Of a DNA stretch of 64,000 bases, positions 641 to 4,706 are shown piece by piece. The stretch is from Candidatus Hydrogenedentota bacterium (lineage in GTDB: Bacteria; Hydrogenedentota; Hydrogenedentia; Hydrogenedentales; SLHB01), in the NCBI GenBank assembly GCA_963668025.2, contig CAXXTH010000010.1, positions 64,001 to 128,000 on the forward strand, given 5' to 3'. A program made the translations under genes and the position numbers. The notes under the pieces are model-generated. The model searched no databases. It was given only the letters and a program-made list of their open reading frames with translations, and was not told the DNA's origin. Position 1 is the first letter of the stretch. Every line of letters begins with the position of its first letter.

Positions 641-1717
641 ATGAAAGCGCTCAAGACATACCCATTTGAACCTGACTACGCGGTTTCGCCGGGAGAGACG
701 TTGCGTGAAGTCATGGAGTCGCTTGGCATGACCCAGGCGGAACTGGCAACCCGTACAGGACTCACTGTTCAAACATTGAATCGCATTTTCAATGGCATCC
801 AGCCAATCACGTATGAGACGGCCAACAAACTTGAGCTCGTGACTGGCGTGTCGGCGCGAATGTGGAACAACTTGGAGGCCCAGTACCGGGAGCAATTGAC
901 GACGCTTGAGGAACGCGAGAACCTGAAGGCTGACTGTGCATGGCTCAAAACCATTCCGACCAAGGAGCTGATTGAACGAGGCCTACTCACGGATGAACCG
1001 GATGCGGTGGCGCTTCTACGAAGCGCACTGGCCTTTTACCAAGTAAGCAGTGTAGAGGCATGGCATGCGATTTGGGGGGAACCTAAGGTGGCCGCGCGGC
1101 GTTCGCCCTGCTTCGAGACACGGATAGGCCCTGCTTCGGCATGGATTCGGCAAGGGGAACTCAAAGCGCAGGCCATACAGTGCCAGCCCTATGACAGGGA
1201 ACGATTCCAGGAAGTCTTGCCGATTATCCGGGGACTCACGAGAGAAACCCCGAAGGTGTTCGAGCCCGAGATGAAGCGCCTTTGCGCCAGCGCAGGCGTT
1301 GCGGTGGCGTTGGTCCGGGAGATGAAGAAAGTGCCGTGGAATGGCGCCACGAAATGGCTGGGAGCGCACAAAGCGATGATACTGCTGTGTCTGCGCGGCA
1401 AAGGAGAAGACCGTTTTTGGTTTTCGTTCTTCCACGAAGCCAGCCATATTCTGAACGACAACAAGAAGCTGTTTATCAACGATGGCACCGAGGATGACTT
1501 TTGTGAACGGCGGGCCAATCTATTTGCCGCCAATACGTTGATTCCCTCGCAGTACAATGACCGCATATGCGCATGCACCACGGACAGGGAGATTGTGGAC
1601 CTTGCGAACGAGCTCGGTATCGCGCCAGGGATTGTGGCGGGAAGGCACCAACATCTGACTCAGAAATGGTCCCATTTCAAGAACCTGATTCGACAGTTGC
1701 AGTGGGAAGCCTCCTAG
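641..1717 (+). CDS. higA: HigA-family XRE HTH antitoxin fused to an ImmA/IrrE-like metallopeptidase domain
   Basis: N-terminal SPGETLRE...MTQAELA HTH; C-terminal FWFSFFHEASH (HExxH) and ExxAN motif. Confidence 0.8.
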   Translation: MKALKTYPFEPDYAVSPGETLREVMESLGMTQAELATRTGLTVQTLNRIFNGIQPITYETANKLELVTGVSARMWNNLEAQYREQLTTLEERENLKADCAWLKTIPTKELIERGLLTDEPDAVALLRSALAFYQVSSVEAWHAIWGEPKVAARRSPCFETRIGPASAWIRQGELKAQAIQCQPYDRERFQEVLPIIRGLTRETPKVFEPEMKRLCASAGVAVALVREMKKVPWNGATKWLGAHKAMILLCLRGKGEDRFWFSFFHEASHILNDNKKLFINDGTEDDFCERRANLFAANTLIPSQYNDRICACTTDREIVDLANELGIAPGIVAGRHQHLTQKWSHFKNLIRQLQWEAS

Positions 1718-1727
1718 ATCCTTATCA

Positions 1728-1762
1728 CGCAAAGGCGCGAAAAACTACTTTCCTCCGCGCCT
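1728..1762. repeat. REP-like palindrome interrupted by IS110 (left arm CGCAAAGGCGCGAA; right arm broken after CCGCGC-CT)
   Basis: Reverse complement of 1728-1741 is TTCGCGCCTTTGCG; the right arm TCCGCGCCT ends at the inferred IS110 core. Confidence 0.65.
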
Positions 1763-1882
1763 TATATGATCAGCAGACCGGTATTTGATTGACAAAAGAC
1801 GCCGTAGCAGCTTTTTCTTTTTGGTTCTTTTTCTTTTAAGCCCGCTGTTAAAACGGTGGATAACTTTTCGCAGAAACGACTT

Positions 1883-2062
1883 TTCTTCCGCCCGGCCAGG
1901 TGGAAGAATAGGATGGGAGGCGGAGACGGTTCGCGCCATGGGACATATGAGAAGCCCGCCGCAAAGATAGATCCCGCCTCTCATCCGAACGTGGCCGCCG
2001 CTGAAGACCGGAGATTATCCTGGGGAACAGCCCCGGATCCATAAGAGTGGTCAGGCGGTCAC
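1883..2062 (+). ncRNA. IS110 bridge RNA (5' hairpin, target-binding loop, donor-binding loop)
   Basis: Stems 1883-1892/1899-1908, 1911-1923/1974-1986 and 1991-1999/2054-2062; loop segments TTCGCGCC, CGCAAAG and ATAAG match the flanking target and junction, and AGATTATC sits at the left donor-guide position. Confidence 0.8.
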
Positions 2063-2085
2063 CTAACGAACAGGAGTATTATATC

Positions 2086-2193
2086 ATGAAACAGCACCCG
2101 GAAAATGTGAACTGGGCAGGCCTTGATGTGTCCGCAAAACACTTCGATGCGGCGCTGGCCCGCAAAGACCAGCGTTTCCCCTCCACCCCATAA
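2086..2193 (+). pseudogene. IS110 recombinase N-terminal fragment (35 aa)
   Basis: AGGAG RBS then MKQHPENVNWAGLDVSAKHFDAAL, the first catalytic Asp motif (GxDVSK-like) of DEDD RuvC-like IS110 enzymes; the stop lies inside the IS4 terminal repeat. Confidence 0.75.
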
Positions 2194-3534
2194 GCGCTAA
2201 CCTTATATTGCCTCCATCAAACCACGCAACTGTTGCATTCGCTTCCTTGGGGGCTCTGCCAGATCTCTCGCGATTTCCCGCCACTGGCTGATGCATTCGG
2301 ATAATCCAAGCGTCGGATTGACCGCTTGGCGAAGGAGGTGCAAGGCGAAAGAGAGTTCGCGCCACAAGGAGGCCTCGCGGTAGATATCGTCACAGTGGAT
2401 ATCCCCAGGGGGAAAAAAAGCGCCCCTCATCAACAATGGCCTGGGCAAGGCAGGAGACAAGCATTTTGCCGTGGAGCCAAGCCTTGGCCGACTCCTCGTC
2501 TTCCTTTGGCAAGTGTCCCAATCCCATAATCGACTTCATCCGTTTGAAGGCCAACTCCACCTGCCAGCGCGCCCGGTACAACTCGATAACCTGGTGCGGC
2601 GATATTGAATCCGGCAAGGATGTGGCCAGTATGACGTAGCGATGCAGCACAAGCGTTTCGGGATCCAGACTCCGTTGCTTCTTGCTTAGCTCTTTCTTCG
2701 CCCGGCGGATGCTTTGCGCGGCGGCTTCCTCGCTCAAACGCAGCGCACAGATCCGTAGCGCCAGCTCCTCCTGCCCCTTTGCCTGGCCAATCAGGGCCCA
2801 ATCACCCACTTCCCCTACCTCTAGAGACGCCACCAATCCAGCCAGTGGACAGGTGTTCCCTGCGCCATTCCGAAGACTGAAGGCTTTATTCTTAAGACGC
2901 GTCAGAAAGTTCCCGTTATGGCCGAGCACATAACGAAAACCTTTGAGATGCCCATAAGCACGATCTCCGAGCAATAGGTCGCCAGGCGAGACTCGGAATC
3001 GCGCGAAACTCTCTCCAACCTTCGGGCCGGTAATATGAAACTCATCGCATTGAAGACCGTATAAACATAGGCTGTAGTGAACGCGCCAGTCCGTTCCCGT
3101 GCTTCCCGGTTCGCAGACAACGCTCGCATCCACGACGCGAACACGGTAATACTCCAGCCATGCAGGCCGAACGCACGGTCCCGCGCGACGTTGAAGTATC
3201 TCTACGGCCATCCACCGCAGCCATTCCCCCGAAGCACGCAACCGCTTAAGAAGTGCCACATCCGACACGGACGCCACATTCCCTTCTCGAGCACGAACGA
3301 CAGCCTCACGCAGAGAACACCCATCCGCCAAATGGATCAACAGCAAGCGCAGGAGCGATTCCGTCGACGATATAGAACGAGGCTTGCGGTGCCACGCGCC
3401 CAATTCACGAGCCTTGTCCTCCCATCCAGCAGGGAGAAAACGCTGTAAACACTGCCAATTCTCATTCCACGCTGCTTCCATGCACCCAGTATAGAAGATT
3501 CGTCAGGAGACATCAAATAAGGTTAGCGCTTATG
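2189..3534 (-). mobile_element. IS4-family (IS186/IS421-like) insertion sequence
   Basis: Terminal inverted repeats CATAAGCGCTAACCTTAT at 2189-2206 and 3517-3534, resembling IS186 ends; C-rich and G-rich flanks; no matching target duplication. Confidence 0.85.
2390..3481 (-). CDS. IS4-family DDE transposase
   Basis: VVDAS, LGDRAY and YRARWQVELAFKRMK (Y-2-R-3-E-6-K) signatures. Confidence 0.9.
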   Translation of the reverse strand: MEAAWNENWQCLQRFLPAGWEDKARELGAWHRKPRSISSTESLLRLLLIHLADGCSLREAVVRAREGNVASVSDVALLKRLRASGEWLRWMAVEILQRRAGPCVRPAWLEYYRVRVVDASVVCEPGSTGTDWRVHYSLCLYGLQCDEFHITGPKVGESFARFRVSPGDLLLGDRAYGHLKGFRYVLGHNGNFLTRLKNKAFSLRNGAGNTCPLAGLVASLEVGEVGDWALIGQAKGQEELALRICALRLSEEAAAQSIRRAKKELSKKQRSLDPETLVLHRYVILATSLPDSISPHQVIELYRARWQVELAFKRMKSIMGLGHLPKEDEESAKAWLHGKMLVSCLAQAIVDEGRFFSPWGYPL

Positions 3535-3623
3535 GGGGGGGGGGGTAGATCTTGACATGACAAGCCTCCTTAATCTTGGTTTATCTGGGACACACCAAAC
3601 ATTAGAAGTCATGCGGTACCCTC

Positions 3624-3652
3624 TTTATAGCACACCTAGGCGCACCTGTCAA
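3624..3652 (-). promoter_or_regulatory. Sigma70-type promoter of a gene truncated by the IS4 element
   Basis: Minus strand TTGACA-17 bp-TATAAA, then AAGGAGG RBS and ATG at 3558 (MSRSTPP...) running into the IS end. Confidence 0.55.
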
Positions 3653-3936
3653 GAAGTTTTTTTTCCATATAGCGAAGGCATTCACGGTGGATATAGTGCG
3701 GATATTTGCGATGGGTGTTATGGGTTTTGGGGCAAGGATATTGGGAGTTTAGCCAGGAGGAAACAGTTGACTTGTGTGCGGCTGGTGCAGATTTCTCAGG
3801 GTTATGTAGAGTACTAGGGAACGGAGCCGCGGAAAAGGCCAGCCAATGACTGGCCAAGGAATTTTGGGATTCTTTTAAACTGGAGTAACCGGATACACAA
3901 GATTAGGCAAGAGCGATAGATAAAAACGGAACTTTG

Positions 3937-3965
3937 TTGACAATAGAGGACATTAGAGGTATGTT
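3937..3965 (+). promoter_or_regulatory. Sigma70-type promoter of the HTH-EIIA/ehr operon
   Basis: TTGACA-17 bp-TATGTT; the spacer contains a TAGAGG direct repeat with 10-bp period. Confidence 0.55.
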
Positions 3966-4001
3966 TATGCCGTTTTAACCGGAAATAGGGAGAGTTAGGG
4001 C

Positions 4002-4706
4002 GTGCAACTGCAAGTGAAAGATGTGGCGAAATACTTCGGCGTGACCGAAAAGACCATCTATCGATGGATCGAACAAGACGGCCTCCCGGCGTTCCGCATC
4101 AATAAGCAGTACCGCTTCAATCGTGTCGAAATACTCGAATGGGCCACGGCTCATAAAGTGAATGCGTCCACCCAATCGTTGCGGGACACGGAAGAGGAAT
4201 CGGCTTTTCTCCCGAATCTGGCCGAGGCGCTCGAGGATGGCGGCGTCTATTACCGTATAGATGGGAAAGACAAGGACTCCGTCATGCGCTCGGTGGTGGA
4301 TGTGCTCCGCCTGCCGGAAGCCGTGGACCGGGAGTTTTTATTGCAGGTGTTGCTCGAACGCGAGGCCATGGGCTCGACGTCGGTCGGCGACGGCATTGCC
4401 CTCCCTCATGTTCGCAATCCTATCGTGATGCATATTCCACGTCCCACGATCACCCTATGTTTCCTGGAAAATGCCATCGATTTCAACGCCCTCGATGGCA
4501 AGCCGGTGAATACGTTGTTCACGATCGTGAGCCCCACCATTCGCTCCCATTTGCACGTGATTTCCTGCCTGGCGTTCGCGCTGCGGGACGCCGAATTCAA
4601 GCGCGTGGTGATGGAGCAGGCATCGCGCGAAGTCATCCTCTCGGAAGCCCGGCGCGTCGCGGCGTCGCTGGCCGCGCCTCAGTCCGCTACAGGAAAGGCG
4701 GACTGA
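4002..4706 (+). CDS. Excisionase-type HTH (HTH_17) fused to a PTS EIIA (PtsN/Fru-type) domain
   Basis: VKDVAKYFGVTEKTIYRWI...LPAFRI...YRF HTH; REAMGSTSVGDGIALPH phospho-His motif. Confidence 0.85.
   Translation: MQLQVKDVAKYFGVTEKTIYRWIEQDGLPAFRINKQYRFNRVEILEWATAHKVNASTQSLRDTEEESAFLPNLAEALEDGGVYYRIDGKDKDSVMRSVVDVLRLPEAVDREFLLQVLLEREAMGSTSVGDGIALPHVRNPIVMHIPRPTITLCFLENAIDFNALDGKPVNTLFTIVSPTIRSHLHVISCLAFALRDAEFKRVVMEQASREVILSEARRVAASLAAPQSATGKAD

Follow-up and report, generated by a model that had tools for sequence, protein, structure and literature searches.

The 64,000-nt window considered here, that is, the whole stretch of DNA that was analysed from Candidatus Hydrogenedentota contig CAXXTH010000010.1 (host genome 6.1 Mb), carries near its start a bridge RNA gene followed by the first codons of a recombinase gene, which an IS4-family insertion sequence (IS) interrupts. 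Taken as a whole, the locus is very probably the truncated left end of an IS110-type element with its RNA gene intact, and thus an ordinary relic of a known system. Its features, in window coordinates, are the following.

1722-1763, no strand assigned: hairpin resembling a repetitive extragenic palindrome (REP), the presumed insertion target, downstream of a helix-turn-helix (HTH)/Peptidase_M78 gene (sequence and DNA fold).
1754-1760, + strand: left target (LT) TCCGCGC, a 6/7 match to the left target guide (LTG) TTCGCGC.
1761-1762, + strand: CT core dinucleotide, drawn here as the first bases of the element.
1761-2188, + strand: surviving part of the IS110-group element, comprising the left end, the bridge RNA gene and the 5' end of the recombinase gene (homology).
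1765-1770, + strand: TATGAT, the predicted −10 half of a circle-junction promoter, the −35 half of which belongs to the right end and is lost here.
1812-1864, + strand: conserved leader, with a T-rich block at 1812-1837 and then one GTGGATAAC box at 1856-1864.
1881-2064, + strand: bridge RNA of 184 nt, a full-length match to covariance model R1.
1883-1908, + strand: 5' stem-loop (fold, RNAalifold and covariation; 5/9 pairs of helix 1 are compensatory).
1911-1986, + strand: target-binding stem-loop, with LTG TTCGCGC and the core C at 1930-1937, the right target guide (RTG) CGCAA at 1960-1964 and AG, the core complement, at 1965-1966.
1991-2062, + strand: donor-binding stem-loop, with the left donor guide (LDG) AGATTAT and C at 2012-2019 and the right donor guide (RDG) CATAAG at 2040-2045.
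2086-2188, + strand: recombinase stub of 34 codons plus one base (MKQHPENVNWAGLDVSAKHFDAALARKDQRFPST).
2189-3534, − strand: IS4-family insertion sequence of 1346 bp with terminal inverted repeats CATAAGCGCTAACCTTAT, cutting the recombinase gene.
3535-3545, no strand assigned: G-run abutting the IS4-family element, with no target-site duplicate of the left flank.

An earlier note on this DNA had proposed an orphaned bridge RNA upstream of a recombinase stub, and all of its coordinates and strings are present in the sequence, with the junction string TCCGCGC-CT-TAT at 1754-1765, TATGAT at 1765-1770, TTCGCGCC at 1930-1937, CGCAAAG at 1960-1966, AGATTATC at 2012-2019 and CATAAG at 2040-2045. The minimum free energy (MFE) fold of 1870-2075 (−82 kcal/mol, z −2.89) consists of stems at 1883-1908, 1911-1986 and 1991-2062, which reproduces exactly the three consecutive stems that the note had drawn. 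Since 3/200 shuffles of this region fold at least as well, the single-sequence fold alone beats chance only moderately. The comparative evidence, drawn from aligned left ends, is the decisive support for an RNA structure. RNAalifold, applied to an alignment of eight left ends, gave 46 pairs, 20 of them with compensatory change, and the covariance model R1, which was built from the same alignment, matches window 1881-2064 over model positions 1-180 with 171.2 bits (E 1e-44). In a pooled alignment (33 rows and 28 distinct sequences, which are kin and were fitted to R1, so that the figures favour structure), 93.2% of cells are paired compared with at most 51.4% when partners are slid, 26/46 pairs have changed on both sides, and 0/500 shuffles reach any of five measures. 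The slid controls share the model-fitting bias, and the gap between them and the observed pairing remains large. The window RNA departs once from the 56 columns conserved at 90% or more, and relatives depart 0-8 times. Fold, covariation and the R1 match together bear out an IS110-group left end with the layout of 5' hairpin, target loop and donor loop and with a CT core, as the note had read it. Rfam 15, searched over 1500-4200 at E ≤ 10, gave no relevant match; the two weak ones that it returned, GlsR8 (16.8 bits against a gathering score of 100) and HOTTIP_1, are unrelated to the question.

The matching of loops to flanks is the test that sets a bridge RNA apart from any structured leader. 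For each copy, four strings were taken from the loops and compared with the flanks of that same copy. The first loop supplied its 5' strand and, from its 3' strand, the 5 nt preceding AG; the second loop supplied the 7 nt preceding C and, from its 3' strand, the nucleotides preceding AG. At the right target (RT), 87/100 positions match over 20 unique events (25 rows with a right junction), 13 of which are perfect, while shuffling the flanks among elements gives 40.0 ± 4.9 and 0/10,000 shuffles reach 87. Similarly, at the left target 136/203 positions match over 29 unique events (31/33 rows have a left flank) when three offsets are allowed, compared with 91.7 ± 5.6 in the shuffles, and 0/10,000 of these reach 136. 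The LDG is identical to the last 7 nt of the right end in 19/20 cases, a count that is partly circular because the search patterns overlap, and its four variants, AGATTAT, ACACTAT, ACGCTAT and ACACTGT, are each paired with an identical right-end 7-mer. Right junctions reading AGATTAT-CT, which the earlier note had expected of full-length copies, were looked for in relatives, and 9/9 full-length metagenome relatives with donor guide AGATTATC have this right end. For the right donor guide, left ends with CTTA pair with xTAAG and those with CTTG pair with xCAAG in the rows examined by eye, with L038 (CAGG) as the odd one. The left-junction motif CTT(A/G)TATG is found by regular expression in 31/33 related copies, and CT stands at the right end of 25/25 full-length rows, CT itself being part of the search patterns.

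When the same rule is applied to the window, the target loop TTCGCGC-C / CGCAA-AG gives the target TTCGCGC-CT-TTGCG, and the donor loop AGATTAT-C / CATAAG gives the donor AGATTAT-CT-TAT. The RDG CATAAG agrees with the left end CT-TAT, the LDG AGATTAT predicts a right end AGATTAT-CT, and the RTG CGCAA predicts a right flank TTGCG. Given the RT and LT matches in relatives and the matches in the window itself, the decoding of target and donor offered in the note stands.

The relatives on which these comparisons draw come from several searches. A DNA search of 61 related genomes gave matches in 12, the window's own included, and several of the matches are followed by full-length genes (350-358 aa) that encode PF01548 and PF02371 domains; the recombinase of the closest full-length relative, L148, has both domains and matches NF033542 ('IS110 family RNA-guided transposase') with 195.9 bits (cut-off 140). 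R1 sites occur in 21/133 genomes of the order, own genome included. Within the host genome, no second copy was found by DNA search, and R1 gives a single match, the one in the window. A pattern scan of metagenome contigs for the window donor guide added 10 loci (9 full length, 1 broken). In species-representative genomes, a 17-nt donor-loop pattern gave 90 stretches, and 80 of these, taken as loci, contained no new copy: R1 matched 3/80 (L069, L087 and L118), with bit scores equal to those of three truncated copies already known, and the other 77/80, which have no R1 match, look like chance matches to a short pattern. The full-length relatives (25 rows) carry at least 16 different right-target guides, with one subfamily at a tRNA-like site and another in REP-like repeats. 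The subfamily that shares the donor guide of the window (L139-L147, L004, L021 and L023) is nearly always found at one conserved site, flanked by GGATTCGAACCT(A/G)CGAC-CT (left) and TTGGGTTATGAG (right). Judged by eye, the site resembles the stretch from T-arm to anticodon of a tRNA gene in reverse; in 7 loci (GGATTCGAACC... on the left, TTGGGTTATGAG on the right) in which the element would split such a gene and the flanks were left unjoined, ARAGORN did not call a tRNA. In L008 and L017, the left end of one relative has lost the 5' hairpin and the entire target loop by deletion and has kept the donor loop and the recombinase gene.

The element of the window lies in the right arm of a hairpin (stem 1732-1739 with 1756-1763) that folds as DNA at −9.1 kcal/mol (z −3.57), and the left arm of this hairpin at 1728-1741 (CGCAAAGGCGCGAA), when reverse-complemented, is identical to the predicted 14-nt target TTCGCGCCTTTGCG. 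The 14-mer TTCGCGCCTTTGCG has 3 exact sites in the 6.1-Mb genome, one of which is the window's own left arm, and 46 sites with one mismatch; 20 shuffled 14-mers have 0-1 exact and 0-11 one-mismatch sites. These target sites are either hairpin arms or octamer runs (CTTTGCGC / CTTCGCGC) with TGAG or TGAA at the end, and the octamer runs and hairpin arms with such endings identify the predicted target, on sequence grounds, as a REP-like repeat family of the host. The REP-like octamers CTTTGCGC / CTTCGCGC / CTTAGCGC are frequently arranged as long hairpins whose loop is a G/C run (...CGCAAAGGGGGGAGCATGACGAGGTTTCTTTGCG...), and the repeats are clustered on contigs C21 and C23 (e.g., C21:32164-37700, C23:332164-334510 and C23:371966-372031). 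Many sites with one mismatch have the sequence TTTGCGCCTTTGCG. Within the left target guide, position 1932 is C in the window and T in contigs of two other metagenome runs, X4 and X6, and a guide with T at 1932 is predicted to specify TTTGCGCCTTTGCG, the other common variant of the host octamer repeat.

Upstream of the RNA lies what remains of the predicted junction promoter. In 24/24 full-length relatives, a spacer of 17 or 18 nt would separate a TTGAnn in the right end from TATGnT in the left end once the ends are joined, both being consensus matches. In the truncated copy, a consensus scan of 1600-2250 found no + strand sigma-70-like promoter. A TTGACA at 1789-1794 was considered as an internal promoter and rejected, as it lacks a suitable −10, shows no conservation among relatives when judged by eye and did not come up in the scan. 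For IS621, removal of the −35 box of the junction promoter is reported to have abolished recombination unless the RNA was given in trans (PMC11208160). Between the tip of the element and the RNA, the leader region of L003-L048 and L139-L148 contains a T-rich block (TTTTCTTTTTGGTTCTTTTTCTTTT) and, after it, at most three GTGGA(T/A)A boxes; by a strict count there are 0-3 boxes per row, with 1-3 in most relatives and 1 in the window, and the same box occurs directly 3' of the recombinase gene in some relatives (L032, L033 and L035). The leader box TGTGGATAA is what we take to be the reverse complement of the DnaA-box consensus. The clade's leader of about 100 nt (T-rich block plus at most three GTGGATAA boxes, kept tighter than the RNA in 33 copies) could be an extra functional module undescribed for IS621-type elements, with relics persisting as trans-acting guide genes that steer incoming related recombinases to REP-like repeats, but we regard this combined proposal as improbable.

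Downstream of the RNA, the short frame from 2086 reads MKQHPENVNWAGLDVS... and has IS110 homologues, being identical to the N-terminus of the L148 recombinase at 15/30 positions (E 2e-7). Pfam has no match in the 35-aa stub; the PF01548 and PF02371 domains are absent, and what remains is a gene fragment only. The 35-aa stub described in the note is indeed a recombinase start, but its native sequence stops at 2188: the final two bases of codon 35, together with the stop codon, are supplied by the IS4-family element. The transposase gene of the latter lies at 2390-3481 on the − strand (PF01609, E 1.7e-16; NF033592, 139.7 bits, cut-off 115), and BLAST against the whole genome recovered 11 copies of the element at 99.7-100% identity, which fix its ends at 2189 and 3534. 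An 11-bp target duplication is present at 9/11 copies (8 perfect, 1 with one mismatch), and the only copies that lack it are the window copy and the one at C10:20122. On the 3' side of the IS, the G-run gives way to unrelated DNA with a 92%-identical paralogue on another contig, and the remainder of the IS110 element is absent; the G-run at 3535-3545 does not duplicate the left flank, so this is not a point at which the IS110 sequence picks up again. The copy at C10:20122-21467 and the window IS (C10:66189-67534) have the same orientation, are 46 kb apart and both have a G-run as outer flank. This arrangement would fit a composite transposon of 47 kb, on whose inner edge the IS110 relic would lie, and would account for the lost IS110 remainder; the weak points of this idea are that the G-run is of low complexity and that the similarity of the paralogous region on C17 is confined to the right outer flank (91.9% over 198 nt) and to 16 nt on the left side.

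Contigs of three other metagenome runs (X4, X5 and X6) match the left end at 95-99% or better and reach 2189, beyond which they extend by 17-119 letters that differ from the IS, and their shared consensus continues in frame as ...LRELPWKRF, similar to the ...PLRALPWKAFPRT of relatives. Relative to the window left end, X4 has 11 differences in 396 nt and X5 has 3 differences in 248 nt. As these contigs continue past 2189, an uninterrupted form of the same element exists elsewhere. In the host assembly, tblastn with two family recombinases found no IS110 recombinase, and six-frame searches with PF01548 and PF02371 gave 0 matches, both models being positive in control genomes. The copy is therefore orphaned, as the earlier note had stated, with its recombinase cut after codon 34 and no IS110 recombinase domain in the assembly. 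The further suggestions of the note have fared less well. Its idea that the RNA is possibly usable in trans finds no support, given the lack of a recombinase in the assembly, the lost −35 half and the lack of a + strand promoter in 1600-2250. A "new natural specificity left intact" is likewise an overstatement, given that near-identical uninterrupted copies are present in three other metagenome runs and that natural IS110 elements each carry their own guides.

These observations are consistent with a simple history, the order of which we infer. An IS110-group element would have inserted, guided by its bridge RNA, into the right arm of the REP-like hairpin 3' of the HTH/Peptidase_M78 gene, after the CT of ...TCCGCGC-CT. 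Later, the 1346-bp IS4-family element, which now appears very active in the genome, would have landed in codon 35 of the recombinase gene, and the remainder of the IS110 element (recombinase, right end and right junction) would then have been lost by an IS-associated rearrangement. The remnant is immobile, with no recombinase in cis or elsewhere in the assembly and with no right end; as a consequence of the lost right end, it has neither a donor site nor the −35 half of the promoter. The near identity of the IS4-family copies to one another and of the left end to the uninterrupted copies makes the break look young, and a young break means that preservation of the RNA needs no selection. Most simply, then, the RNA would be intact owing to a recent break, not selection, and it would probably be without function.

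Several points weigh against this account. The RT and the left donor of the window are not directly checkable with the right end lost, and their support comes from relatives and from the hairpin's symmetry. The relatives are not independent, many of the rows are given by the subfamily at the tRNA-like site, and the pooled alignment was fitted to the model. The LT test permitted three offsets, and the regular expressions for the right end and the LDG constrain each other. Some copies fit poorly, with LT matches of 1/7 in L143, L029 and L033 and of 2/7 in L028 and L039, and in L025 the RT match is 1/5, with disagreement between the right end and the LDG at 2/7 positions. The assembly is 93.75% complete in 24 contigs, and a recombinase on an unassembled repeat is possible. 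In addition, integrated IS621 loci are reported to express their bridge RNA weakly (PMC13626964, available part), so that the absence of a consensus promoter does not prove silence.

Such weak expression would also suit an orphan bridge RNA that is still working, transcribed by read-through or from a weak promoter and used in trans by a resident or incoming recombinase, or recruited as a small regulatory RNA. Its sequence shows no damage (171.2 bits; 1/56 departures, with 0-8 in relatives), bridge RNA supplied in trans is reported to work in E. coli (PMC11208160), and the host genome offers many near-target sites. A working orphan is nevertheless very unlikely: the assembly contains neither an IS110 recombinase domain nor a second bridge RNA, the natural promoter has lost its −35 half and the scan found no + strand promoter in its place, a hairpin separates the upstream gene from the element, the donor site no longer exists, and the intactness of the RNA is explained by recency, as measured by the identity of the IS copies (99.7-100%) and by the few differences from X4 (11/396 nt) and X5 (3/248 nt).

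It is also conceivable that the break itself is an artefact of assembly, the IS4-family repeat having joined unrelated places, and that the real genome holds a complete IS110 element. With 11 near-identical IS copies and a window copy that lacks the 11-bp duplication present at 9/11, such a misjoin might be suspected, but all 11 copies lie inside contigs of 140,604 to 1,610,229 bases, meaning that the assembler spanned the repeat, and the missing 3' part of the recombinase gene is on no contig. The C10:20122 copy, 46 kb away, has no duplication either and has a G-run as outer flank, which fits a real rearrangement, and an artefact thus has only a slim chance of being the explanation. The chance is smaller still, and close to nil, that the three stems are a structured 5' untranslated region of the recombinase mRNA without guide function, which match the flanks by accident. 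The single-sequence fold (z only −2.89) and the lack of an Rfam match would allow it; however, the loops co-vary with the flanks across at least 16 right-target guides to an extent that 0/10,000 shuffles reach, and each of the four donor-guide variants is paired with an identical right-end 7-mer. A bridge RNA stranded by a recent truncation thus remains the preferred reading of the locus.

The surroundings of the relic can be described briefly. Directly 5' of it, at 294-1717, lies a two-gene pair in which a 114-aa frame overlaps a 360-aa HTH_3 and Peptidase_M78 protein by 4 nt; the 114-aa frame has a weak HigB-like match (E 0.046) that is below the cut-off, and in sequence the pair looks like a toxin-antitoxin-like or ImmA/IrrE-type module. 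On the other side of the IS4-family element, a non-coding region at 3535-3735 begins at the G-run and lies upstream of an HTH_17 and PTS_EIIA_2 gene (4002-4706), and this region has a 91.9%-identical paralogue at G000 C17:1532199-1532396 (198 nt).

As it stands, the find matters little: it is an insertion sequence in truncated form, and every natural IS110 element has guides of its own. The case does demonstrate that raw sequence is enough for a correct decoding of bridge-RNA guides, and that the palindromic counterpart of a target allows a missing right junction to be deduced. The C/T polymorphism at 1932 is a small natural example of guide retargeting. The related full-length elements make up a compact set of natural recombinase and bridge RNA pairs with diverse guides, and as they all have clear (predicted) junction promoters, they could be mined as orthologues.

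Among known systems, the window element is closest in the PDB, as far as recombinase sequences indicate, to IS621 and ISCro4. ISCro4 is an engineered genome-editing orthologue. Its recombinase (PDB 9t56) aligns with residues 11-343 of the 358 of the L148 recombinase at E 4.1e-37, a comparison of recombinase sequence only, and is as close to it as the IS621 chain 8wt6, which aligns over the full length at E 4.5e-37; with IS621, too, the alignment is at the level of the recombinase, and the RNA layout is compared by description. The available part of PMC11208160 describes for E. coli IS621 a bridge RNA of 177 nt encoded in the left end, with LTG, RTG, LDG and RDG, a target loop that varies and a donor loop that is conserved, a CT core and a junction promoter, and it predicts thousands of natural IS110 bridge RNAs, among which the RNA family of the window may be included. 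Like IS621, the window element has a left-end RNA with a 5' stem-loop and two further stem-loops bearing internal loops, in which LTG and LDG read as the top strand of the left halves and RTG and RDG are complementary to the right halves. It also shares the CT core and a repetitive extragenic palindrome as target, such palindromes being reported as targets of both IS621 and ISPpu9 (PMC11208160; PMC12288879). A sigma-70 promoter rebuilt across the joined ends, as in IS621, is predicted from the relatives. Unlike IS621, whose RNA is reported to start at the promoter (PMC11208160), the present family has a conserved leader of about 120-130 nt (T-rich block plus GTGGATAA boxes) from the tip to the 5' stem-loop; the guides also differ, and the window copy is without recombinase, right end and one promoter half.

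ISPpu9 and ISPpu10 of Pseudomonas putida are reported as IS110-family elements in REP sequences, and for ISPpu9 "orphan" copies of the element-associated small RNA gene ssr9 are described elsewhere in the genome (PMC12288879, available part). The window element resembles both in being an IS110-family insertion in a REP-type sequence. It differs from ISPpu9 in the nature of the orphans, which in ISPpu9 are a different small RNA, not a bridge RNA, whereas the window orphan arose by truncation; ISPpu9 also has a strong native promoter. Among the papers listed for orphan or truncated bridge RNAs, none is, by title or abstract opening, about orphan bridge RNAs, and only the ISPpu9 paper names "orphan ssr9 genes". 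The IS1111 group, for which a seekRNA is described (PMC11187229, available part), likewise has a DEDD recombinase guided by an RNA that the element encodes. In IS1111, the RNA is reported to lie in the right end, downstream of the gene, in elements with long subterminal inverted repeats (PMC11208160), whereas the RNA of the window lies upstream of the gene, in the left end.

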